Source: an uncultured Bacilli bacterium
Lineage (GTDB): Bacteria > Bacillota_I > Bacilli_A > RF39 > UBA660
NCBI GenBank assembly: GCA_947629165.1
Contig: CANRCR010000001.1
Coordinates: 86,246 to 150,245, forward strand
DNA length: 64,000 nt
Direction: 5' to 3'
In this document: in pieces, positions 6,009 to 64,000 of the stretch
Position numbering within the stretch: the stretch's first letter is position 1
How the letters are laid out: every line of letters starts with the position of its first letter
Position numbers and translations under genes: made by a program
Notes under the pieces: generated by a model
The model's database searches: none
What the model saw: only the letters and a program-made list of their open reading frames with translations
Told to the model about the DNA's origin: nothing

Positions 6009-8063
6009 ATGAAAAGAAAACGAAAGAAAAAGATACCATCTCGTTATGTTAAGTATCATTTTGAACGACGTTTTTTATTCGTTCAAATGCTTTTTCTTGG
6101 ACTTTTTTTACTTTTGAGTTTTTATCTTACGAAAATATTTGTTTTAGAAAAAGATTTTTATCAAGAAAAATTATTATCTTTGACAGATAAGATTGTTGAA
6201 GGAGAAAGTGCACCTCGTGGTAGAATATATGATCGCAATTATAAATTACTAGTAGATAATGTACAAGTTCCGACGATTTATTATCAGGATAGTAAGGATT
6301 ATAGTACTCAAGAAAAAATCAATCTTGCTTATCGATTAGGAGAGGTCATTGAGGTTCCTTTTGAAAAATTAGCATTAATTAATTTAAAAGAGTTTTTTTT
6401 AGCGGAGTATCCGAATGTTGGAAAAAGTAAAATCACAGAGGAAGAATGGAAAGCTTATGAAGAACGAAAATTATCTTCTCGCGATATTGAAAAATTAAAA
6501 ATCGAACGTATTACTTCCGACGATTTAGCAATTTATAATGATTCATCGAAGAAGGCGGCTTACTTTTATTATTATATGAATAAAGGCTATATTTATCAGA
6601 AAAAAACTTTAAAAACAAATGCTTCTGTAGAAGAGATTGCCTATCTTGCCGAACACAGTACGATGTTTGAAGGAATCAGTGTGGAACAAAACTGGGAAAG
6701 AGTTTATTATTACGGCGATACTTTTCGATCGATTTTAGGAACGGTTTCCAGTTCTTTTCAAGGATTACCGAGCGAGGAAGTAGCGATGTATCTTGAAAAA
6801 GGGTACGCCTTAAACGACCGCGTGGGGACTAGTTACTTAGAAAAGCAATACGAATCCTTACTTAAAGGAACCAAAGCGAAGTATCGTGTTACGAATAGTG
6901 ACGAGATGACGCTTATAGAAGAAGCCAAACGTGGAAAAGATATCGTGCTTACAATCGATATTGAATTACAGCAGGAAGTTGATCGCATTTTAAGTGAACA
7001 GTTAATCCGCGCTAAATCGGAGCCCAATACTGGTTACTTTAATCGCAGTTTTGTAGTTATTCAAGAACCGAATACCGGGGAGATTTTAGCAATGAGTGGG
7101 AAACAAGTTATAAAAGAGATGGACACTTGGGTAGTACGAGACTATACGCCGGGTATATTGACTTCTCCGATGACTCCTGGAAGTGTCGTCAAAGGGGCTA
7201 CCATGTTAGTAGGTTATAACACGGGTGTCCTTCAAATTGGAGAGGTCATGCAGGATGAATGTATTAAAATAGCGGGTACTCCTAAAAAATGTTCGCATGC
7301 TAATCTCGGCCGCATTAACGATATTATGGCACTTGCCCAATCTTCCAATGTTTATCAGTTTAAAATTGCGATGCGTGTTGCAGGAGCAACTTATCGTTAC
7401 AACCAACCTTTATATATTAATCCTGTCGCTTTTTCTATTTATCGTAAGACGTTAGGCGAGTTTGGATTAGGCGTAAAGACAGGAATCGATTTACCTGTTG
7501 AAAGTTTAGGTTATATCGGAACTAAAACGGATCCTGGGTTACTTTTAGATTTGTCGATGGGACAGTATGATACGTATACACCTATTCAATTATCGCAATA
7601 TATTACTACACTAGCGTCTAACGGGGTACGTTATCAACCACATCTTTTAAAAGAAGTTCATAGTTCTACTTCATCGAACGAATTAGGTGCATTAGAGCAA
7701 ACTTTTGTACCGGTTGTTTTAAATACGGTCACCACAGAAGAACGCTTTTTAAATCGTATCAAAGAAGGATTTCGAGCAGTGATGACGGTTGGTCTTGGAA
7801 AAGGAGTGATGGGAACGAGTCCCAATCCGGCCGGAAAAACGGGAACCAGTGAATCTTTTCTCGATACCGATGGAGATGGTGTTATCGATAGTGCATCGGT
7901 CAGTAACGCTTTCGTCGGGTTCGCCCCTTACGATCACCCTCGAATGACGATTACGGTTACTTCTCCCGATGTCGAAAAACCTTCTGGATATACTTATCAC
8001 AGTTATGTCAATCGTCGTATTGCCCGTGAAATATCGAGTCGTTTTTTTGAACTTTATCCTTAA
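6009..8063 (+). CDS. Class B penicillin-binding protein (transpeptidase, PBP2B/SpoVD-like)
   Basis: 684 aa. N-terminal membrane anchor. Transpeptidase motifs SVVK (SxxK), SSN and KTGT are all present in the correct order. Confidence 0.85.
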   Translation: MKRKRKKKIPSRYVKYHFERRFLFVQMLFLGLFLLLSFYLTKIFVLEKDFYQEKLLSLTDKIVEGESAPRGRIYDRNYKLLVDNVQVPTIYYQDSKDYSTQEKINLAYRLGEVIEVPFEKLALINLKEFFLAEYPNVGKSKITEEEWKAYEERKLSSRDIEKLKIERITSDDLAIYNDSSKKAAYFYYYMNKGYIYQKKTLKTNASVEEIAYLAEHSTMFEGISVEQNWERVYYYGDTFRSILGTVSSSFQGLPSEEVAMYLEKGYALNDRVGTSYLEKQYESLLKGTKAKYRVTNSDEMTLIEEAKRGKDIVLTIDIELQQEVDRILSEQLIRAKSEPNTGYFNRSFVVIQEPNTGEILAMSGKQVIKEMDTWVVRDYTPGILTSPMTPGSVVKGATMLVGYNTGVLQIGEVMQDECIKIAGTPKKCSHANLGRINDIMALAQSSNVYQFKIAMRVAGATYRYNQPLYINPVAFSIYRKTLGEFGLGVKTGIDLPVESLGYIGTKTDPGLLLDLSMGQYDTYTPIQLSQYITTLASNGVRYQPHLLKEVHSSTSSNELGALEQTFVPVVLNTVTTEERFLNRIKEGFRAVMTVGLGKGVMGTSPNPAGKTGTSESFLDTDGDGVIDSASVSNAFVGFAPYDHPRMTITVTSPDVEKPSGYTYHSYVNRRIAREISSRFFELYP

Positions 8064-8354: not shown

Positions 8355-8383
8355 AATAGTATAGAAAGGGCGTGTAAGCCATG

Positions 8384-8941
8384 ATGATCAGTGTTAATGA
8401 TTTTAAAACAGGAATGACCATTATTTATGAAGATGCCATTTATCAAGTATTGGAATTCCAACATGTAAAACCTGGAAAAGGTGCTGCATTTGTAAAAGCA
8501 AAATTACGTAATTTAAGAACAGGTTCTATTATTGAAAAAACTTTTAATTCTTCTGTTCGTGTTGAACAGGCTAGAATTGAAAAAAGAGATATGCAATTTT
8601 TATATTCACAAGGCGATTCTTATTTCTTTATGAATATGGAAACTTACGATCAAGTTGAACTTACTGAAAAACAATTAGGTGATGAGATTAAGTTCTTAAA
8701 AGAAAATTTAATCGTTACTATTTCTTTCTACGAAGGAGAAGTTTTAGGACTTATTTTACCGGATAAAATTGAGATGAAGATCGTACATTCGGAACCTGCA
8801 GTAAAAGGAAATACTTCAAGTGGAGCGATGAAAGATGCGACGCTTGAAACTGGAATGGTTATTAAAGTTCCATTGTTTGTCGAAGAAGGAGAAACCGTTG
8901 TTATCTCTACTTCGGATGGAAAATATGTATCTCGTGCATAA
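8384..8941 (+). CDS. efp: Elongation factor P
   Basis: MISVNDFKTGMTI...KPGKGAAFVKAKLRNL matches EF-P, including the conserved Lys loop (PGKG). The start is chosen at the second Met. Confidence 0.9.
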   Translation: MISVNDFKTGMTIIYEDAIYQVLEFQHVKPGKGAAFVKAKLRNLRTGSIIEKTFNSSVRVEQARIEKRDMQFLYSQGDSYFFMNMETYDQVELTEKQLGDEIKFLKENLIVTISFYEGEVLGLILPDKIEMKIVHSEPAVKGNTSSGAMKDATLETGMVIKVPLFVEEGETVVISTSDGKYVSRA

Positions 8942-9030: not shown

Positions 9031-9540
9031 GTGATTAACAAGCAAAATTTGTGGTTCTTAACATTATTTAGTTTGATTTTAGTATTAAGTGTTTATTACA
9101 TTACGATGCCGAGTGAATTGCTTCTTACCAATAACAGTAATTACGATACGAATGTTTCTAGTGATTCGGATACCGATGTTGTTCAGATCGAAGAAAGCGA
9201 TTTACTAACGGCCATGCGTGTCAGTTTAGATGAAGAACGACTTGAGTTACAAAATACACTTCAGGAAACTTTAACATCTACTTCTTCTTCGACCGAGGAT
9301 AAGAATGAAGCTTATGAAAAATTAAGACATCTCGACGAAGTAAAAGGAAAAGAAGAGACACTCGAAAATAAAATAAAAACAAATTTTAAACTGGATAACT
9401 TTATTAAAATTGATGGTAGTGAAATTCAAGTAGTTGTTGTTGCACAAGAACATAGTAGTGAACTTGCGAATAACATTATGCGTAGCATACAAGAAGAGTT
9501 TCCAGAAAAAGTATATGTGACTGTAAAATTTGAAAAGTAA
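9031..9540 (+). CDS. spoIIIAH: Stage III sporulation protein AH-like (SpoIIIAH family)
   Basis: GTG start. The N-terminus MINKQNLWFLTLFSLILVLSVYYI closely parallels B. subtilis SpoIIIAH (…WLLTMLSLVVVLSVYYI…). Single TM segment followed by a YscJ/FliF-like domain. It sits directly downstream of efp, as the spoIIIA operon does in Bacillus. Confidence 0.65.
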   Translation: MINKQNLWFLTLFSLILVLSVYYITMPSELLLTNNSNYDTNVSSDSDTDVVQIEESDLLTAMRVSLDEERLELQNTLQETLTSTSSSTEDKNEAYEKLRHLDEVKGKEETLENKIKTNFKLDNFIKIDGSEIQVVVVAQEHSSELANNIMRSIQEEFPEKVYVTVKFEK

Positions 9541-9633: not shown

Positions 9634-9843
9634 GTGCGCAAAGGTATTTTAACGAAAAGAGAAAAAGAAGTATTTAATCTCTTGGTTTTAAATAAAACGA
9701 CAAAAGAAATTGCTTTTGATTTAGGTATCAGTGAGAAAACCGTTCGTAATCATATTTCGAATGCTATGCAAAAATTGGGCGTTAAAGGTAGGGCAGGAGC
9801 GGTTGTCGAATTGTTAAAACTAAATGAAATCAGTCTCTCGTAA
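9634..9843 (+). CDS. gerE: Sporulation transcription regulator GerE (LuxR/FixJ-type HTH)
   Basis: 69 aa. ...LLTKREKEVFNLLVLNKTTKEIAFDLGISEKTVRNHISNAMQKLGVKGRAGAVVELL is nearly identical across its length to B. subtilis GerE. GTG start behind RBS aggagaaggag. Confidence 0.85.
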   Translation: MRKGILTKREKEVFNLLVLNKTTKEIAFDLGISEKTVRNHISNAMQKLGVKGRAGAVVELLKLNEISLS

Positions 9844-11012: not shown

Positions 11013-11089
<77 letters not shown>

Positions 11090-11152: not shown

Positions 11153-11244
11153 TTTCTTGACGATTATTTGTCAATTCATTTTTACTTTTTTTATTATTTC
11201 GAATATAATAAAATTAAAGTTATAAAAATAGAAAGGAGTATTTA

Positions 11245-11385
11245 TAACTAGCGCTAGGACCAGGATGGTTGACGAGGTTAACAGTGGTCGAAAGATTCAG
11301 CGGATGCTGTTACGGATACTACGTTCGTTAGACTATTCAAAAAAGACAAAATTAAAATTGTAACAAAGGAATAGTTTAGTAGTAG
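11245..11385 (+). ncRNA. glmS ribozyme (GlcN6P-responsive self-cleaving riboswitch) in the glmS leader
   Basis: Leader contains AGCGCUAGGACCAGG...GACGAGG...CGGAUGC, which matches the conserved glmS ribozyme core blocks (AGCGCC.G..., GACGAGG, GGAUGCC). It is positioned directly 5' of glmS, as in Gram-positives. Confidence 0.65.
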
Positions 11386-11396
11386 GAGGTTATAAT

Positions 11397-13163
11397 ATGT
11401 GTGGTATTGTAGGATACCTAGGAAATAGAAAAGCAATTCCTGTAATTATGCAGGGGTTAAAGAGTTTGGAATATCGTGGTTACGATTCTTCTGGAATTGC
11501 GTACGTTCAAGATCAGATGATTCACGTACTAAAAAAAGAAGGAAAAATAGAAAATTTAGATACCCTGTTGGATTATGATACGGATACCTATTTAGGAATC
11601 GCCCATACAAGGTGGGCTACGCATGGGAAGGCAAACGATATTAATGCTCATCCTCATACTTCAGGAAAAATCACTTTAGTTCATAATGGAATTATTGAAA
11701 ATTATGCCCAATTAAAGAAAAAACTCATTGAAAAAGGAAAAACTTTTGTCAGTGAAACCGATACGGAAGTCGTTGCTTGTTTACTCGATACTCTTTATGA
11801 AGAAACCAAAGATTTACTTAAAGCAATTGCACTTTTATCTGAAAAGGTAATCGGTTCTTATGCGTTAAATATTCTTTGTGAAGATGAACTCGATACTTTG
11901 TATGCCGTTCGAAAAGATAGTCCTTTGATTGTTGGAAGGGGGAATCAGGAATTTATTTTAGCGAGTGATATTCCAGCTTTACTTCCTGTTACGAATCATT
12001 ATTATCTTTTAGATAATTATGAAATTGTTAAAATAACCAAAGAAGGGATTTCTTTCTATGATCAAAAGTTAAATAAAATTACGAAAGTAGAACAGGAATA
12101 TACGGGTGACTTGGAAGTTTCTTCTAAAAAAGGATACGACCACTTTATGTTAAAGGAAATCAATGAACAACCGGAAGTAATTAAAAACTTACTTGCAAAA
12201 TATGTTGTAGAAGATCATCTTCAAAATGTTTTCGATATCAAAAAATATCAAACCATTGAAATTGTTGCCTGTGGAAGTGCCTATCATGCAGGTTTAATTG
12301 GCAAGTATTATTTGGAAAATTTAGCATCGATTCCAACGCGTGTCACTTATTCTTCCGAATATCGTTATCAGAAGAATTTCTTTGATAAGAATAATTTAGT
12401 TATTGTAATTTCACAATCTGGAGAAACGGCGGACACGTTAGCTGCTTTGAAATTAGCCAAAGAGCATGGAATCGACACGTTAGCGATTGTCAATGTGGTT
12501 TCTTCTTCGATTGCCCGTGAAGCAGATCATGTATTTTATACGGATGCCGGTATTGAAGTTGCGGTAGCGACTACCAAAGCTTATTTTGCTCAAGTAGTAT
12601 CGTTATTACTTCTTGCCGTGGCAACCTTAAAAGAACAAGCATCGATTCTTGCTTCATTGAAACAACTACCTTCGCTTATTTCGAAATATATTCATCATTT
12701 TGATTATGAAACACTTGCGAAACGTTTTATAGGTCGGGAACATATTTTCTATTTAGGAAGAGGCGTTGACTTTTCACTCGCAATGGAAGGAAGTTTAAAA
12801 TTAAAAGAAATTTCTTATATCCATAGTGAAGCTTATCCTGCTGGAGAATTAAAACATGGAACGATTTCACTAGTGGACGAAGAAACTGGAATTATTGCGG
12901 TTGTACTCGATCATACCATTAAAGAAAAGACGATTAGTAACTTGAAAGAAGTTGCTTCAAGGGGTGCTCAAGTGGTTGCTATTACGAACGATGCTACCGA
13001 TGAATTTTGTGATGAAAAAATACTTCTCGAAGATTATGATGCAGTGATTAATCCGTTAGTTGCGATTATTCCTATGCAATTATTAGCTTATCATGTTGCC
13101 AAGTTAAAAAAATGTGATATTGATAAACCACGCAATCTTGCGAAATCGGTTACCGTGGAATAA
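11397..13163 (+). CDS. glmS: Glutamine--fructose-6-phosphate aminotransferase
   Basis: N-terminal MCGIVGY (Ntn Cys). Two SIS domains. 588 aa. RBS taggaggtt. Confidence 0.9.
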   Translation: MCGIVGYLGNRKAIPVIMQGLKSLEYRGYDSSGIAYVQDQMIHVLKKEGKIENLDTLLDYDTDTYLGIAHTRWATHGKANDINAHPHTSGKITLVHNGIIENYAQLKKKLIEKGKTFVSETDTEVVACLLDTLYEETKDLLKAIALLSEKVIGSYALNILCEDELDTLYAVRKDSPLIVGRGNQEFILASDIPALLPVTNHYYLLDNYEIVKITKEGISFYDQKLNKITKVEQEYTGDLEVSSKKGYDHFMLKEINEQPEVIKNLLAKYVVEDHLQNVFDIKKYQTIEIVACGSAYHAGLIGKYYLENLASIPTRVTYSSEYRYQKNFFDKNNLVIVISQSGETADTLAALKLAKEHGIDTLAIVNVVSSSIAREADHVFYTDAGIEVAVATTKAYFAQVVSLLLLAVATLKEQASILASLKQLPSLISKYIHHFDYETLAKRFIGREHIFYLGRGVDFSLAMEGSLKLKEISYIHSEAYPAGELKHGTISLVDEETGIIAVVLDHTIKEKTISNLKEVASRGAQVVAITNDATDEFCDEKILLEDYDAVINPLVAIIPMQLLAYHVAKLKKCDIDKPRNLAKSVTVE

Positions 13164-31886: not shown

Positions 31887-32657
31887 TTAAGTTAAAAAGG
31901 TTCTAATGATCTTATATACATAGTAGGGATTTTCTAAATAGGGAAAGTGTCCTGTTCCTTCAATTAAAACAAGTCCTGAATCCGAAATTTCTGCTTTCAT
32001 CTTTTTGCCATCTTCAAAAGGAGTAGTGGCATCTTTTTCACCCCAAATCAGTAATGTTGGAGCATTTATTTCTTTTAAATAGGGAAAGAGATCCTCTTTG
32101 ACAACATTTTGAAAAGTTTTTCGCATATCGATGGGAAGACTTCGATAATCACTCGAACCAAACTTTTGAAGTAACCATTCAAGGTATTTTTTCTGTTGTT
32201 TTTTAGGAAAAATAGTTCCTAGTTTTTTTAAGATTCGATAAATTTTATTTTTTATTTTTTGATAGAAAGTTTGGGTAGGAAGAATACCGGCACTATCTAA
32301 GAGGATGATTTTAGAAATTGGTAAGTGGTAGTATCCTGCTAAAAGGATGGCGATTCTTCCACCAAAGGAGTGTCCTATTAAAATAGGTTCTTTGAGTTCT
32401 TCTTTTTCGACAAAGGCTTTGATTAGTAACGCATAGTCATAAATTGTTAAATCGTGATGGGGAAACTTCGTGTTTCCAAATCCGGGGTAGTCAAAGATAT
32501 AGATGGTGTGTTCTTTTTGTAATTCTTCAAGGAGATAATGAAAAGTTTTTCTAGTGTCTCCCCATCCAGGTAGTAGAAGAATGGCATGCTCTTTTTCTTC
32601 TCCGTATTTTTCATAATAAAGCGAAATATCTTGATTATCAAAATACATTATCTTCAC
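31887..32657 (-). CDS. Alpha/beta-hydrolase fold protein (esterase/lipase-like)
   Basis: Nucleophile elbow GHSFGG. 256 aa. Confidence 0.7.
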   Translation of the reverse strand: MKIMYFDNQDISLYYEKYGEEKEHAILLLPGWGDTRKTFHYLLEELQKEHTIYIFDYPGFGNTKFPHHDLTIYDYALLIKAFVEKEELKEPILIGHSFGGRIAILLAGYYHLPISKIILLDSAGILPTQTFYQKIKNKIYRILKKLGTIFPKKQQKKYLEWLLQKFGSSDYRSLPIDMRKTFQNVVKEDLFPYLKEINAPTLLIWGEKDATTPFEDGKKMKAEISDSGLVLIEGTGHFPYLENPYYVYKIIRTFLT

Positions 32658-32754
32658 CTAGTATAATGTATGTTTGGAGTGGTTTTATTGTTCCAAAGTG
32701 ACAAATGAAGAAAAATTAGTATATTTTTTTACAAATTATGATATAATAGAATTG

Positions 32755-32972
32755 TCTAGAGGGTTTTCGATTGTTATCCAATATAAAACCGACTAAAATA
32801 ACGATACGGGAGTTCGGATCAGTCGTCGGTGTTGAAGACCTTTTCCTTTTCGATTAGGGATCCTAATGGCGGCGTATGGACACCCACCTGTACATGGGTG
32901 CAGGTTTTATCGTTGATAGCGTCGACCCTTTGGACTTATTTGATATGTTACAAGCGCCTGCTTGTTTTTTTC
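32755..32972 (+). ncRNA. Candidate stand-alone structured small RNA (unassigned; 6S-like size)
   Basis: Extended -10 promoter (TGATATAAT at 32739-32747). About 215 nt with several strong local hairpins (attagg/cctaat; cacccA/Tgggtg), visibly GC-richer than the flanks. Ends in a clean intrinsic terminator (acaagcgcctgcttgt plus T7 at 32950-32972). The downstream gene has its own TTGCTT-17-TATAAT promoter. Confidence 0.45.
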
Positions 32973-33030: not shown

Positions 33031-33723
33031 ATGTATTATTTTCCGGTATTAAATAAAAATCATATGGATTTATACAAATTAGTTTTAAAGGATGCCCGTT
33101 TTGAAAAACAAACGGGGAGTCGGTCGATCGACGACTTGAAACTTTCTTTTGTACCCAAAGATGAAGAAACTGTCTGTGAAGTACCTTTTTATGGAAATGA
33201 TTTGTTACCTTGGGATATCGTATCTACTTTAGCTCAAAGTACTCGTGATACTTACTGTATAAAAGGTCGGGAAGGGGATTATATTATTCCTATTCCTACT
33301 TTATCAACGGCTTATGGATTTCGGGCGATGGCACGAGGAACGCTCTATTATCATTTGCTTTATCAGATGGCGGATGAAACGATGCAGGATGAATTTTTTG
33401 ATCTAGCTCATTTTGTCAATCGAAAGGGCGCTTTTCAAACAGTCATTGATTCTTTCGAACAAACTGGATTTTGTCCTTGGAAACAAAAAGATAAAAATGT
33501 GCTTCCTTCTTTTGTAGAACCTGTTTTAGTGAAAAGTTTACCGGTGGTTCGACTTGCCACTTTTACTAAAAAAGAACGAATGTATACTTGGAACCGGTAT
33601 TGGAATAATTATTTATCTCTTGCCAAGCAAAATGGAGATATTATCTATCCAGAACTAATCGATACTATTCCTCCTGTTGAACAAGAAGTAGATCAAGCCG
33701 TTTTCCAAAAAATATTAAAGTAG
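33031..33723 (+). CDS. Hypothetical protein (230 aa)
   Basis: Intact ORF with its own promoter and RBS ggcgg. Confidence 0.5.
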   Translation: MYYFPVLNKNHMDLYKLVLKDARFEKQTGSRSIDDLKLSFVPKDEETVCEVPFYGNDLLPWDIVSTLAQSTRDTYCIKGREGDYIIPIPTLSTAYGFRAMARGTLYYHLLYQMADETMQDEFFDLAHFVNRKGAFQTVIDSFEQTGFCPWKQKDKNVLPSFVEPVLVKSLPVVRLATFTKKERMYTWNRYWNNYLSLAKQNGDIIYPELIDTIPPVEQEVDQAVFQKILK

Positions 33724-43344: not shown

Positions 43345-43554
43345 ATGTTAAAATTAAACATTCAATTATTTGCGGTACCATTCCATCGTGTATCAAAAAC
43401 TAGAAAGAGAATGAGAAGAGCACACAATGCTTTAACCGCGAACGGAACGGTAAAATGCCCAAATTGTGGTGAAGCAATTCGTCCTCATAGAGTTTGTGCA
43501 AAATGTGGTTACTACAAAGGTAAAGAAGTTGTAGCCGTTAAGAACGAAGACTAA
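43345..43554 (+). CDS. rpmF: 50S ribosomal protein L32
   Basis: ...[21 protein letters not shown]...CPNCGE...[15 protein letters not shown] matches L32 with its Cys4 ribbon. ATG at 43345 behind GGAGAGGAG gives a 9-aa N-terminal extension (MLKLNIQLF). Confidence 0.8.
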
Positions 43555-43566
43555 TCGTTCTTTTTT

Positions 43567-43575
43567 TTCGACAAA
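43567..43575. promoter_or_regulatory. Spo0A-box-like 9-mer TTCGACAAA upstream of spoIIGA
   Basis: Exact reverse complement of the 0A box TTTGTCGAA, about 35 bp upstream of the spoIIGA start. The B. subtilis spoIIG promoter is Spo0A~P-activated. Confidence 0.45.
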
Positions 43576-43607
43576 TTATTGATCTTTTTTTTATTACAAT
43601 AGAACGG

Positions 43608-44399
43608 GTGAGTTTAGTGAAAATATATATCGATCTCGTTCTTTTTTTGAACTTTGCTTTTGATTTCTTCTTGTTATTAGCCGTATCTTATCTTTTGAAA
43701 AGACGCACTAAAATTCGTCGCCTTTTTTTAGGCGCGTTGGTGGGAAGTAGTAGCCTGCTAGCATTATTCTTATCTTTTAATTCTTTTACTTTATTTCTTT
43801 TTAAAATCGGAATCAGTGTTTTCATGATTCTTAGTACTTTTGGATTTCATAACCGAGCTACTTTCTTTAAAAATTTTATTTATCTTTACTTTGTCAGTAT
43901 ATTGCTAGGCGGGGGAATGTATCTTTTAAATATCCAATTTAGTTATAAAAACGAAGGTCTTATTTTTTTCTATCAGGGAATAAGTATCAATTTTTTACTT
44001 TTATTTCTTTTGGGACCTATCTTACTTTATTACTATGTAAAAGAAATCCATCATTTGCCATTCCATCGCTCGGTTTATCATTCGGTTACCCTTTATTTTT
44101 CTTCAAAAAAAATTCTTACATTACAAGGTTATTTAGATACAGGTAATCAGTTGTATGATCCTTATCATCATCGACCTATCTTGTTGGTTTCAAGTGCGTT
44201 TTTACATATTCCTTACGAAAAAGCGATTTTAGTTCCTTATGAAACCGTACAAGGAAAAGGAGTACTTCGATGTCGTAAAATTAAAAAAATGGTTATCGAT
44301 GAAGAAAATGTTTTTAAAAATGTATTAATTGCGCAAAGTAATAAAGAATTTCATTTACATGGAGCTGAGGTAATAATTCATCCGGATTTTATGAAGTAG
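43608..44399 (+). CDS. spoIIGA: Sporulation sigma-E processing aspartic protease SpoIIGA
   Basis: N-terminal five-helix membrane domain (KIYIDLVLFLNFAFDFFLLLAV...LGALVGS) and catalytic DTGN motif (YLDTGNQLYDP), 263 aa. Confidence 0.85.
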   Translation: MSLVKIYIDLVLFLNFAFDFFLLLAVSYLLKRRTKIRRLFLGALVGSSSLLALFLSFNSFTLFLFKIGISVFMILSTFGFHNRATFFKNFIYLYFVSILLGGGMYLLNIQFSYKNEGLIFFYQGISINFLLLFLLGPILLYYYVKEIHHLPFHRSVYHSVTLYFSSKKILTLQGYLDTGNQLYDPYHHRPILLVSSAFLHIPYEKAILVPYETVQGKGVLRCRKIKKMVIDEENVFKNVLIAQSNKEFHLHGAEVIIHPDFMK

Positions 44400-44406
44400 T
44401 CTTTCT

Positions 44407-44415
44407 TTCGACAAA
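44407..44415. promoter_or_regulatory. Second TTCGACAAA Spo0A-box-like 9-mer between spoIIGA and sigE
   Basis: Exact 9-mer, 8 bp after the spoIIGA stop. Confidence 0.35.
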
Positions 44416-44485
44416 ATAAAAGTAACGGTTTCTTTATAATATATTTATCATGTTTGACATAAGATGAATTAAAGGAGGGACATTC

Positions 44486-45175
44486 ATGATTACTTTATGG
44501 TTGTTCGTTAGTAAGTTGATGGAAAAAATTAATGTTTTATTCTATGTAGGAGCAACGGATGTTCTGCCTGAACCTTTATCGAAAGAGGAAGAAGAATATT
44601 ATCTTACCATGGCGGAAGATGGCGATTTATTTGCCCGTGATAAACTAATCGAGCATAATCTTCGACTCGTCGTTTTTCTTGCAAAGAAGTACGATAATAC
44701 CCGAGTCGATTTAGAAGATTTGGTGAGTATTGGTACCATCGGTTTGATTAAAGGTATCAAAACGTATCAGATGGATAAGAATATTAAACTGGCCACTTAT
44801 GCTTCCCGTTGTATCGACAATGAAATTTTAATGTATTTAAGAAAAAATAAAAAGGTTCGAACGGAAGTTAGTTTTGATGAATCTTTAAGTTTTGATCCAG
44901 ATGGAAATGAACTTCATTTAGAAGATATTTTAGGAACGGATGCCGATATTGTAACGCGGGGATTAGAAGAAGAAACCGAACGCGATTTAATGATGCAAGA
45001 AATTAATAAACTCGATTCGCGCGATCAAGAAATTATTAAATTACGTTACGGACTAGATGGTAAAGAAGAAATGACTCAAAAAGATGTGGCCGATCTATTA
45101 GGTATCAGTCAATCTTATATTTCACGTATTGAAAAAAAGGTCATTAAGCGATTAAAAAGTGTCGTCAAGTGTTAA
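44486..45175 (+). CDS. sigE: RNA polymerase sporulation sigma factor E precursor (pro-sigma-E)
   Basis: Pro-sequence plus YVGATDVLPEPLSKEEEEYYL...LIEHNLRLVVFLAKKY matches pro-sigma-E. Regions 2-4 are present. Confidence 0.85.
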   Translation: MITLWLFVSKLMEKINVLFYVGATDVLPEPLSKEEEEYYLTMAEDGDLFARDKLIEHNLRLVVFLAKKYDNTRVDLEDLVSIGTIGLIKGIKTYQMDKNIKLATYASRCIDNEILMYLRKNKKVRTEVSFDESLSFDPDGNELHLEDILGTDADIVTRGLEEETERDLMMQEINKLDSRDQEIIKLRYGLDGKEEMTQKDVADLLGISQSYISRIEKKVIKRLKSVVKC

Positions 45176-57000: not shown

Positions 57001-58041
57001 ATGAAACATGAAATTGACCTCAGTCTTTATTCTATTCGAACGGATTTAGTTATCGATACCATTACGCAAGAACAGGCTTCTTTAGTTACCGAAAAGAAAA
57101 CAGCATACGATGCTATTTCTGTTTCCGAGGTAAATATCGATTCAAAAAACAGTGCACTTTTAGGCAAAAAAGAAGGAAAGTATATCACGATTAAATTTGA
57201 GGATGTCACCGATCACGTGAATCGGGCCAATTTAATTGAAGTGGTGACCCAAGAGTTACGGGAATTACTGGATTATTTGCATATTGCTCCTTCGGATAAA
57301 TGCTTTGTCGTAGGACTTGGAAATCGTAATTCTACGCCGGATGCTTTAGGCCCTAAAACACTCGATCAATGTTTTATTACCAAATATTTATTTGATATGG
57401 AAGGGGCAGAAGTGGAACCGGGAATTCGTAATGTATCTGGTTTTGTTCCTGGCGTCATGGGAAGTACAGGAATCGAAAGTAGCGATGTTATTTTAGGTAT
57501 TGTCGAAAAGACGAGGCCGGATTTTATTTTGGCTATCGATGCGTTAGCTTCTTCGAGTATGGAACGACTTTCTAAAACAATTCAAATGACCGATACTGGA
57601 ATCCATCCTGGAAGTGGGGTGGGAAATAGTCGGAAAGAAATCTCGCAAGCTACGATTGGAATTCCGGTGATTGCAATCGGTATTCCGATGGTCGTCGATT
57701 TGGCCACCATCGTGTCCGATACGATTCATTATTTTTTAAGACAGATGAGTTATAATAAAGAAAACTATTCGAAGGGAAGTCATAAATTAACGCCGGTTAC
57801 GGCAAGAAACTATTTGAAGCATCAAGAACATCTTTCTAAGGAAGAAAAAGAAAAATTACTGGGAATGGTTGGAACTCTTTCGGAAGAAGCTATTAAATCG
57901 TTAATGTTCGAAGTGTTAACGCCCATCGGTTTTAATATGATGGTAACTCCTAAGGAAGTCGATTTTGTCGTCGATTATTTAAGTGAAGTTTTAGGAAAAA
58001 GTATCAATCAGTCATTACATACTAAATCTTTGTCGAATTAA
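57001..58041 (+). CDS. gpr: Germination protease GPR (spore SASP endopeptidase)
   Basis: ...DLSLYSIRTDLVID...VVGLGNRNSTPDALGPKT...VPGVMGSTGIESSDVILGIV...PDFILAIDALAS...DTGIHPGSGVGNSRKEIS...IGIPVIAIGIP is collinear with B. subtilis GPR. Divergent from rpsT as in Bacillus. Confidence 0.85.
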   Translation: MKHEIDLSLYSIRTDLVIDTITQEQASLVTEKKTAYDAISVSEVNIDSKNSALLGKKEGKYITIKFEDVTDHVNRANLIEVVTQELRELLDYLHIAPSDKCFVVGLGNRNSTPDALGPKTLDQCFITKYLFDMEGAEVEPGIRNVSGFVPGVMGSTGIESSDVILGIVEKTRPDFILAIDALASSSMERLSKTIQMTDTGIHPGSGVGNSRKEISQATIGIPVIAIGIPMVVDLATIVSDTIHYFLRQMSYNKENYSKGSHKLTPVTARNYLKHQEHLSKEEKEKLLGMVGTLSEEAIKSLMFEVLTPIGFNMMVTPKEVDFVVDYLSEVLGKSINQSLHTKSLSN

Positions 58042-58068
58042 GCCTTTTAAATAAGGTTTTTTTCTTTT

Positions 58069-58077
58069 GTTCGACAA
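58069..58077. promoter_or_regulatory. Third TTCGACAAA Spo0A-box-like 9-mer upstream of spoIIP
   Basis: Exact 9-mer about 58 bp upstream of the spoIIP start. Confidence 0.3.
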
Positions 58078-58134
58078 AAAGAGTACGTCTTTCTTGCTAA
58101 AATAATTCATATCTTATTAAAAGGAGGGATCCTA

Positions 58135-59127
58135 TTGTATCATCGTAAAAAAATCTATAAAAAATCACACCATCGTTCAATCTCATTAAAAATAAAATTA
58201 CTCTTTCTTTGTACTATTTTAATAAGTTGTATCTACTTTCTCTATCAAGGTGTTTTATGGCTTACCCAAACATCTTTTCATCTATCTTTTTTAGAACAAG
58301 TTTTAGAAGAAAGTATCCCTTATCCAAAGGAAAATAATTATTCTTTCAAGTGGGTTTCTTCACTTACGCATTTTTTAACACGTGTCAATGTTCAAGAACC
58401 TTCTTCTATTTTAAGTCAAGGTTCCGTTTATTTTGCAGAAAATGTTCCTCAAGAAGAACTTGTTTTTGATTCCCCTTTGCCATCACAAGAAGTTGCTCAA
58501 GATGATCCTCTTCCGATTGTTTATCTTTACAATAGTCATCCGAACGAAGAGTATAGTGCATCCAATCTTGAACCTTACAATATTACTCCTAACGTGACCA
58601 TGATCAATTATATTTTAAAGGAAAATTTAGCTAAACAAGGTATTTATTCCATAGTTGAAGAACAGAGTGTTCCTGAAATATTACGACTCCATCAATGGAA
58701 TTATGCTTCGAGTTACAAGGCGACTCGTCTCTTAATGGAAGATGCAAAAGAAAAGAATCCTCAACTTGTCTATTTTATCGATCTTCATCGAGATTCGGTT
58801 GGAAAAAGTATTTCGACCGCGACGATTCAAGGCCTTACTTATGCAAAAGTGCTATTTTTAATCGGTTTGGAAAATGAAAACTATGCTCCCAATCTCGCTT
58901 TTACTGAAAAAATCAACCAACGATTAGAAAGTACTTATCCCGGAATCAGTCGGGGTATCTATAAAAAAGAAGGTCCTGGAGTGAATGGGGTTTATAATCA
59001 AGATTTTAGTCCGCGAACGATTTTGATCGAAGTGGGTGGACAAGCGAATACTATCGATGAAGTTTTCCGTACTACGGAAGCGATTAGTAATGTATTAGGG
59101 GCCATTATTAAGGAGGAATCGGTATGA
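58135..59127 (+). CDS. spoIIP: Stage II sporulation protein P (SpoIIP, engulfment amidase/peptidase)
   Basis: 330 aa, N-terminal TM, located directly after gpr (Bacillus synteny). SpoIIP-like size and composition. Confidence 0.65.
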   Translation: MYHRKKIYKKSHHRSISLKIKLLFLCTILISCIYFLYQGVLWLTQTSFHLSFLEQVLEESIPYPKENNYSFKWVSSLTHFLTRVNVQEPSSILSQGSVYFAENVPQEELVFDSPLPSQEVAQDDPLPIVYLYNSHPNEEYSASNLEPYNITPNVTMINYILKENLAKQGIYSIVEEQSVPEILRLHQWNYASSYKATRLLMEDAKEKNPQLVYFIDLHRDSVGKSISTATIQGLTYAKVLFLIGLENENYAPNLAFTEKINQRLESTYPGISRGIYKKEGPGVNGVYNQDFSPRTILIEVGGQANTIDEVFRTTEAISNVLGAIIKEESV

Positions 59128-59450
59128 ATTGGAATCAGTTTGCAGGAATTAGTTTTTTACTTTTGTTTTTAGTTTTTGTAGGTCTTTATTTTACGGCTTC
59201 TAGTGGCTATTACGAAACGGAGGAACGTAAGAAGATGACCCTTACGGAAGAACAGATTGCGCTTTTTGAAAAAGATGTAGCGGAAGGAAAACAGATCGAT
59301 ATCGAAGATTACTTATCACTTCATGAAAAACATTATGACAATGCGATTTCGTCTACCACTTTATCTTTATCGCATAAGATTGGAGAATATTTTGAACAGG
59401 GACTCAACGCCTTTTTTGAAGCGATGGCAAGTGCTATGAATTCACAATAG
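59124..59450 (+). CDS. yqxA: YqxA-like small membrane protein (DUF3679)
   Basis: 108 aa, N-terminal TM, overlaps the spoIIP stop. It is in the position of B. subtilis yqxA. Confidence 0.5.
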   Translation: MNWNQFAGISFLLLFLVFVGLYFTASSGYYETEERKKMTLTEEQIALFEKDVAEGKQIDIEDYLSLHEKHYDNAISSTTLSLSHKIGEYFEQGLNAFFEAMASAMNSQ

Positions 59451-63417: not shown

Positions 63418-64000
63418 ATGCGACAAGATTTTATTCGAAATTTTTCTATTATTGCCCATATCGACCATGGGAAAAGTACCTTGGCAGATCGTATTTTAGA
63501 AGTGACCGGAGCAGTTTCTAAAAGAGAAGCGAAGAATCAACTTTTAGACAACATGGATATCGAACGGGAACGGGGTATCACGATTAAGTTAAATGCCGTT
63601 CAACTAACGTACACCTACCAAAATCAAACGTATTATTTACATCTTATTGATACGCCGGGACACGTCGATTTTAGTTATGAAGTGAGTCGTAGTTTAGCTG
63701 CCTGTGAAGGAGCTCTTCTCGTTGTCGATGCCGCGCAAGGGGTGGAAGCCCAAACATTGGCAAATCTATATCTTGCGATGGAACATGACCTTACGATTAT
63801 TCCCGTGATTAATAAAATTGATTTACCGAATGCCGATGTTGAAAAGGTCAAAAGAGAACTTGTCGAAGAACTTGGCTTTCGGGAAGATGAAATTCTTTTG
63901 ACAAGTGCTAAAAATGGAACTGGAATCGTCGAACTAATCGAAGCCATTATTACACGCATTCCTGCGCCGAAAGGAAATCCTAAAGCACCGTTACAAGGAC
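63418..64000 (+). CDS. lepA: Elongation factor 4 (LepA), N-terminal part; 3' end outside the window
   Basis: [28 protein letters not shown]... (G1), ...DTPGHVDF (G3), NKIDL (G4). RBS agaggtgg. The minus-strand ORF 63675..63959 is an antisense artefact. Confidence 0.9.

Follow-up and report, generated by a model that had tools for sequence, protein, structure and literature searches.

Three sporulation genes, spoIIGA, sigE, and spoIIP, are preceded by one and the same promoter layout in a stretch of 64,000 nucleotides from an uncultured Bacilli bacterium (contig CANRCR010000001.1, positions 86,246 to 150,245), which is called the window in the following. Each of the three intergenic sites reads TTCGACAAA-N19-TAnAAT and faces the downstream gene. 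These sites are almost certainly functional, conserved promoter elements. Judged from the sequence and with a rough probability of 0.78, they are promoters of the housekeeping sigma-A RNA polymerase that are activated by phosphorylated Spo0A (Spo0A~P), and this promoter type would have been newly placed on sigE and spoIIP. We infer Spo0A as the binding protein, the sigma-A polymerase, activation instead of repression, and the timing of expression. The features of the two loci are the following, with positions counted from the first letter of the window.

About 43346-43555, plus strand: rpmF open reading frame (ORF), read from the sequence.
43540..43562, plus strand: intrinsic terminator of rpmF (stem of 8 pairs, loop of 7 nt, T-run); its T-tail runs directly into box 1.
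43567..43575, plus strand: box 1, TTCGACAAA, with the 0A core at 43567-43573; it covers about −40 to −34 in the putative spoIIGA promoter.
43595..43600, plus strand: putative −10 TACAAT of spoIIGA, 21 nt past the 7-mer box.
43608..44399, plus strand: spoIIGA, encoding the pro-sigma-E processing protease, divergent (TIGR02854, E = 1.6e-31, below the curated cutoff).
44407..44415, plus strand: box 2, TTCGACAAA, which takes the −35 position in the putative internal sigE promoter; the spacer between spoIIGA and sigE that contains it has 86 nt.
44435..44440, plus strand: putative −10 TATAAT of sigE, 21 nt past the 7-mer box.
44458..44465, plus strand: conserved element CATAAGAT, located 17 nt past the −10 in the leader of sigE and resembling a sigma-E/K-type −10.
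44486..45175, plus strand: sigE, encoding pro-sigma-E (NF006158, 326.6 bits; TIGR02835, 315.4 bits).
57001-58041: gpr, encoding GPR (family profile match).
58029..58037, minus strand: inverted copy of the 9-mer (TTTGTCGAA on the plus strand) at the very end of the gpr reading frame, where the codons read K S L S N stop.
58040..58059, plus strand: small hairpin and T-run after the gpr stop, terminator-like and weak; it failed the GC-pair criteria of the terminator scan.
58070..58078, plus strand: box 3, TTCGACAAA, which takes the −35 position in the putative spoIIP promoter.
58098..58103, plus strand: putative −10 TAAAAT of spoIIP, 21 nt past the 7-mer box and preceded by TGC, similar to an extended −10.
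58135..59127, plus strand: spoIIP, encoding the engulfment cell-wall hydrolase (TIGR02867, 164.3 bits; invariant columns of the catalytic region in an alignment of 32 sequences).

The first-pass annotation of the window had named the genes of SpoIIGA, SigE, SpoIIP, EF-P, and SpoIIIAH, and these identities, together with that of GPR, were confirmed. The real start of spoIIGA is probably the GTG at 43617 (VKIYIDL...), as suggested by a putative ribosome-binding site (RBS), GGGTGAG, at 43606-43612. The distances to the start codons are 41-50 nt for spoIIGA, 79 nt for sigE, and 65 nt for spoIIP, so that the annotated placement of the copies within 60 bp upstream of a sporulation gene holds for one site only.

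Occurrence of TAnAAT at the same offset in all three sites has a chance probability of about 1e-7. The gap between the 7-mer core, or the −35-like TCGACA, and the −10 motif was 21 nt at all three window sites, and a generic sigma-70 scan found no canonical sigma-A promoter (TTGACA, 16-18 nt, TATAAT) at any of them. With a 21-bp instead of a 17-bp spacing, RNA polymerase alone should not be able to use such a promoter efficiently.

Conservation of the layout was evaluated in related uncultured Bacilli, with a total of about 130 distinct promoters of the orthologous genes. The spoIIGA-sigE set comprised 80 loci from relatives, in all 80 of which spoIIGA adjoined sigE; the spoIIP set comprised 80 metagenome loci with SpoIIP identities of 41-64% and 29 distinct upstream regions. 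For each offset after the box, the presence of any −10-like hexamer was scored in the distinct promoters (43 for spoIIGA, 27 for sigE, 24 for spoIIP). Such a hexamer stood at exactly 21 nt in 41/43 spoIIGA, 25/27 sigE, and 24/24 spoIIP promoters, 90/94 in total, and all other offsets were at background level. The sequence of the spacer between the box and the −10 drifted freely across the relatives, and at spoIIGA the terminator hairpin of the upstream gene was often located inside the otherwise unconserved spacer. This lack of conservation led to the rejection of an activator of the MerR type that would be bound inside the overlong spacer.

Upstream of spoIIGA, nearly all genomes contained a box ending in GACA and then TATAnT, the commonest boxes being TTCGACA and AACGACA. 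The spoIIP module was present in 24 of the 29 distinct upstream regions, irrespective of whether gpr or another gene was located upstream. The conserved promoter class can be written as nnCGACA-N21-TAnnnT with the invariant core (C)GACA; CGACA was far commoner than TGACA in the relatives, and the 5' TT was freely exchanged for AA. When 1.7 Mb of sequence (the window plus the fetched loci) was scanned for the relaxed motif with an RBS and an ORF after it, 37 matches were assigned to spoIIP, 35 to spoIIGA, 26 to sigE, and 5 to other genes. A wider regulon was not visible among the fetched loci, since no known early sporulation gene was among these 5 non-target matches. At 63419-63452, upstream of lepA, TGCGACA-N21-TATTAT matches the relaxed motif weakly, probably by chance. 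The leaders of the spoIIGA and spoIIP promoters of the relatives (L027-L080 and L081-L160) were very short: about 6 nt separate the −10 from GGTG(A/G)T, which the start codon follows. This indicates that the predicted transcript would start at or within the ribosome-binding site.

The number of 9-mer copies in the window needs to be considered with the kind of DNA they are located in. The 9-mer TTCGACAAA or its complement TTTGTCGAA occurs at 8876(−), 32406(+), 43567(+), 44407(+), 58029(−), and 58070(+). An initial count of four had overlooked the copies at 32406 and 58029; the positions 43567 and 44407 assigned at that time are correct, and two others, 58069 and 8875, were each one base too low. 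The opinion that the sequence is an 0A box stood up, with a match of 7/7 positions to TGTCGAA on the other strand at all three intergenic sites. Window-wide, the excess is marginal (six copies versus 1.82 expected; at least six in 4/100 dinucleotide shuffles). The core 7-mer occurs 26 times versus 12.1 expected, and 23 of these 26 are coding, 22 in ORFs of at least 90 amino acids (aa) and one, at 9804, in a small gerE-like gene. Located mostly in coding sequence, the 7-mer excess points to a codon or dipeptide effect. Enrichment in the whole window was dropped as an argument for these two reasons, the shuffling result and the coding location. Intergenic DNA amounts to 6,559 nt, or about 10% of the window, and contains exactly three core 7-mers, all of them part of full 9-mers. 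Three intergenic 9-mers compare with 0.07 expected, a number reached in 0/5,000 shuffles (Poisson p = 5.6e-5), while the three coding copies compare with about 1.75 expected (p = 0.26) and are unremarkable. The clustering of four copies that had been regarded as striking is real for the three intergenic copies, marginal for the window as a whole, and incidental for the copy in efp. The two incidental copies and the genes around the first of them are as follows.

8876..8884, minus strand: copy in frame within efp (F V E, encoded by TTT GTC GAA) that lacks a −10 at 21 nt.
32406..32414, plus strand: copy inside an alpha/beta-hydrolase gene that is encoded on the minus strand.
8381-8941: efp, encoding EF-P (family profile match).
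9031-9540: spoIIIAH.

The efp copy had been listed as a fourth site connected to spoIIIAH. This connection failed: the copy is in frame with F-V-E, is oriented away from spoIIIAH, and in the relatives goes along with the protein sequence, being kept in an EF-P with 97% identity and gone where the protein reads F-I-N. It was rejected as a regulatory site of spoIIIAH, a gene with a sigma-E-like promoter of its own, TCATATC-N13-CATATAGT. The spoIIIAH gene stands alone directly after efp, with no match to spoIIIAA-AG among the annotated ORFs of the window, several ORFs of which were left unscanned.

The bases that are conserved favor an assignment of the boxes to Spo0A. Spo0A contacts G2, C4, and G5 of TGTCGAA, and mutation of these bases decreased binding of the Clostridioides difficile protein about 10-fold (PMC3485338). 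The invariant C3, G4, and C6 of TTCGACA are the complements of the contact bases G5, C4, and G2. The preference for CGACA over TGACA, together with the replacement of TT by AA, fits an 0A box better than a sigma-A −35 motif. Sigma-E and sigma-F can be ruled out as the shared driver of the three genes because pro-sigma-E and its protease are needed before sigma-E can be active, in the mother cell. Among the known factors, only Spo0A~P in combination with sigma-A fits the shared promoter. Other sporulation promoters of the window belong to classical types that are used at later stages, CATACAAT at a gerM-like gene, CATATACT at yqfC/D, CATAAAATA at a gerE-like gene, and CATAATA at gpr; the sigG gene of the relatives likewise has a classical GTATA..GGTATCAATATA promoter. 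One relative, L143, carries three perfect TTCGACA boxes in tandem with 10-bp phasing at 6087-6113, upstream of a canonical TTGCAA-17-TATAAT promoter, and this phasing matches the 3-bp-linker arrangement that has been described for Spo0A sites (PMC2731898). The L143 promoter precedes an ORF of 235 aa without a Pfam family, just downstream of lepA.

The mechanism that we propose would consist of the following steps. The −10 hexamer is of the housekeeping sigma-A type, and the sole −35-like element, TCGACA, is positioned 21 bp upstream of it and not 17 bp, which should leave the polymerase inefficient when alone. The box, which on the opposite strand reads as the perfect 0A box TGTCGAA, would be occupied at about −40 to −34 by phosphorylated Spo0A, which would contact sigma-A. 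As a result, spoIIGA, sigE, and spoIIP may be switched on together at the onset of sporulation.

Similar promoters are known from other spore formers. In spoIIG of the Bacillus subtilis group, B. velezensis, and B. pumilus (L164-L166), an 0A-type box likewise overlaps a −35-like hexamer, in the same orientation, upstream of the same gene, and with an overlong spacer. The proximal box there is ATTGACA, located 22 nt from the −10 TATACT instead of 21 nt as here, and this −10, with a T-tract before it, is of the same type as in the window. Bacillus spoIIG differs by having two weak tandem boxes, CTCAACA-tta-ATTGACA, plus the strong distal site CTCGACAAA 75 nt upstream of the −10, in place of the one perfect box found here. 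The B. subtilis spoIIE promoter was reported by York and colleagues in 1992 to have a 21-bp spacer. It is likewise an overspaced sigma-A promoter of an early stage II gene that needs Spo0A~P; its target gene differs from those in the window. For spoIIGA of C. difficile, a sigma-A promoter, GTGACA / TATAAT, has been mapped, and the upstream DNA binds the DNA-binding domain of Spo0A (PMC3789822, PMC3485338). A single response-regulator site replaces the −35 motif of a promoter for the housekeeping sigma factor in the case of Caulobacter CtrA (PMC11264516); the family member and the organism are unrelated, and the analogy is one of mechanism only.

Several observations weigh against Spo0A as the activator. 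Paired boxes, occupied by a dimer, are the normal binding site of Spo0A. Neither a partner box 3 bp away nor a distal site was found: the 7-mer at −10 bp from the window boxes matched 1-2 of 7 positions only, and a second 0A half-site at +/−10 bp was not enriched in the relatives, apart from the sigE promoters, where TT was weakly visible at +10. The copy at 58029 is a possible exception to the single-box pattern in the case of spoIIP. In some relatives the spoIIGA promoter contains TTGACA, AATGACA, or AAAGACA, with the loss of one Spo0A contact base. The CATA-type element past the −10 at sigE and at spoIIP of the window leaves room for a second, later-sigma promoter. A spo0A gene was not found with a signature-peptide scan and with tblastn, using a B. 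subtilis Spo0A sequence, in the window or the 1.7 Mb of fetched loci, where its presence was not to be expected. As a general rule, endospore formers encode spo0A. In combination with this rule, a gene-content study that treated spo0A as a prerequisite of sporulation and predicted the order RF39 to sporulate (PMC10868615) suggests that this organism possesses spo0A. Placement of the window into RF39, in turn, leans on a single named relative, Candidatus Faecenecus (L070), which belongs to this order of the Genome Taxonomy Database (GTDB) (PMC8035907).

The relatives as a group are probably the GTDB order RF39. All SigE matches in a species-level genome collection came from metagenome-assembled genomes of uncultured “Bacilli,” “Tenericutes,” or “Mollicutes” from animal and human gut, the best with 93% identity, and two complete genomes among these SigE relatives had sizes of 1.2-1.3 Mb. 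The gene content reported for RF39 includes spoIIGA, spoIIM, spoIIP, spoIIQ, and spoIIIAH, with spoIIE and spoIIAB reduced or absent (PMC10868615).

Alternatively, a DNA-binding protein other than Spo0A may occupy the box, for instance, another response regulator, a mother-cell regulator similar to SpoIIID, or a factor specific for this lineage. This is improbable. The consensus sequence of SpoIIID is WWRRACAR-Y. The sequence TTCGACAA has one deviation from this consensus, with which the variant AAAGACA agrees, and the role of Spo0A is itself deduced from sequence. However, SpoIIID cannot start the expression of sigE because it depends on sigma-E. The perfect 0A core, in a position and orientation that match the Spo0A site of Bacillus, the triple repeat of L143 with a phasing that fits Spo0A multimers, and the conservation of Spo0A specificity from Bacillus to Clostridioides (PMC3485338) likewise speak for Spo0A and against another protein.

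The box may also be a plain −35 motif that works without an activator, either because sigma-A of these bacteria tolerates a 21-bp spacer or because a lineage-specific sigma factor prefers CGACA plus 21 bp. TCGACA is identical to TTGACA in 5/6 positions, TTGACA itself is found in the closest relatives L001 and L002 and in several spoIIP promoters, and there is a single box per promoter. The strong preference for C over T before GACA and the exchange of TT for AA are, however, the opposite of what region 4 of sigma-A prefers. The −10 is a plain TATAAT or TATACT, and the other sporulation sigma promoters in these genomes have a classical appearance. Moreover, the same layout in Bacillus spoIIG belongs to a documented Spo0A-activated promoter, with activation in vitro. 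This explanation has a very small probability.

Finally, it is hardly conceivable that the intergenic copies are chance matches, which the intergenic statistics and the conservation exclude, or by-products of terminators and RNA hairpins without a promoter function: boxes 1 and 3 do follow terminator-like hairpins with T-runs, the terminator stem of the upstream gene has CGACA as its 5' arm in many relatives, and the copies at 58029 and 58070 can pair, but box 2 has no hairpin, the window boxes are outside of the terminator stems (that of rpmF ends at 43562, before box 1), and the hairpin occurs in some relatives only, whereas the box and the 21-nt distance are nearly universal.

The history of the sigE promoter can be followed in the relatives. 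Only the closest genomes, about 27, had a spoIIGA-sigE spacer of 75-102 nt, and all 27 contained CGACA plus TATAAT or TATACT in it. The remaining genomes had an operon junction of 6-25 nt, with the exception of L070. The 227-nt spacer of L070, at about 860-1086, is filled with 4-5 tandem repeats of about 37 nt (gtttctataagcggttttggctattttattgtttaa) that are followed by GTCGACAAA. The internal sigE promoter is a derived trait of one subclade. Without it, the GACA of the spoIIGA box was kept in 49/49 genomes; with it, in 8/25, and the CGACA of the sigE box was kept in 27/27. The association of the loss of GACA from the spoIIGA box with the internal sigE promoter was highly significant (Fisher p = 4.7e-11). 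This pattern indicates that selection acts on whichever box drives sigE. The drifted spoIIGA boxes had forms such as TTCTACA or ATCAACA, and the window retains both the spoIIGA and the sigE box in perfect form. Since no terminator is located between spoIIGA and sigE, sigE is probably transcribed from both promoters in the window. In C. difficile, sigE was reported to be in an operon with spoIIGA and no separate sigE promoter was described; B. subtilis sigE is also co-transcribed. A CATA[T/A]A[N]T element occurred 11-12 or 17 nt past the sigE −10 in most of the spacer-containing loci that were read (among L001-L026, L028, and L048). A sigma-E-type promoter at this leader element was rejected, as the sequences, read by eye, had no −35 motif at a consistent distance.

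At the spoIIP locus, the gene order gpr-spoIIP is shared with C. difficile. There, spoIIP is co-transcribed with gpr under sigma-F control, with a contribution of sigma-E, and in B. subtilis sigma-E and sigma-F are used (PMC3789822). In contrast to the gpr-spoIIP operon of C. difficile, spoIIP here has its own promoter with a box and a −10 of the TATAAT type. The elements of a sigma-E- or sigma-F-dependent promoter (a −35 ATA with CATAcAnT, or GTATA ... GG-A-A-TA) were not found together at spoIIP, and the distance of about 6 nt between TATAnT and the RBS in the relatives leaves no room for such a promoter. CATATCT(T/A) is present 4 nt past the spoIIP −10 in the window (58108-58115) and in L168, without a matching −35, and the window may possess a minor second spoIIP promoter at this CATA element. 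Around the inverted copy at 58029, L167 and also L168, the latter with 58% SpoIIP identity, share the 18 nt AAATCTTTGTCGAATTAA without a change although the flanks diverge, and the chance of a perfect 9-mer so near to box 3 is about 1%. The 58029 copy is also predicted to form an RNA stem of 9-10 bp with 58069-78, which encloses the small hairpin (−15 kcal/mol, z = −2.67). On the basis of these sequences, the copy may be an auxiliary Spo0A site, or a structure at the 3' end of gpr or a hairpin arm that pairs with box 3. An overlapping ORF of 108 aa (59124-59450) follows spoIIP and has conserved counterparts of 100-108 aa in L167-L169.

Some further features of the window were recorded. A gene for a 69-aa protein with GerE and sigma-70 region 4 helix-turn-helix domains is located at about 9634-9843, between spoIIIAH and the GerM-like gene; it has a sigma-K-like −10, CATAAAATA, upstream and one TGTCGAA 7-mer inside. 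A candidate 6S (SsrS) RNA at 32750-32940(+), between the hydrolase gene and an ORF at 33031, matched RF00013 over its full length with 44.8 bits, compared to a gathering score of 46.4 (E = 5.8e-8). A tRNA-Arg(tct) at 11013-11089 and a glmS ribozyme at 11239-11385 are upstream of glmS (11397-13163).

Control of the spoIIG operon by Spo0A is textbook knowledge; the single-box form across the order, the use at spoIIP, and the copy at sigE are new. This is a known promoter class that is newly deployed, and the mechanism itself is not new. The rewired regulatory logic that the first-pass annotation had proposed is upheld for spoIIP, which is under sigma-F/sigma-E control in B. subtilis and C. difficile (PMC3789822), and is weaker for sigE, where the same regulator would act through a new, separate promoter inside the former operon. 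A whole uncultured gut order appears to use a stripped-down spoIIG promoter with one perfect box and a rigid distance of 21 nt. The module before spoIIP, present order-wide, would put an enzyme of engulfment under the master regulator and no longer under sigma factors that are specific for a compartment. Acquisition of an own copy by sigE in one subclade and the subsequent decay of the ancestral spoIIGA box make a regulatory turnover visible.

As a tentative model, for which the odds are somewhat below even, the early sporulation cascade may be compressed in these bacteria with reduced genomes. Spo0A~P would, via the single-box module, directly and perhaps exclusively drive SpoIIP and, in one subclade, pro-sigma-E apart from its protease, bypassing the sigma-F/sigma-E control of every studied spore former. 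As a portable cassette, the module would have been copied before new genes while the genome was streamlined. For biology, the result offers a compact motif with which the Spo0A regulon of these genomes may be defined, and a concrete, testable handle on the wiring of sporulation in organisms that have not yet been grown and in which spore formation is only predicted.

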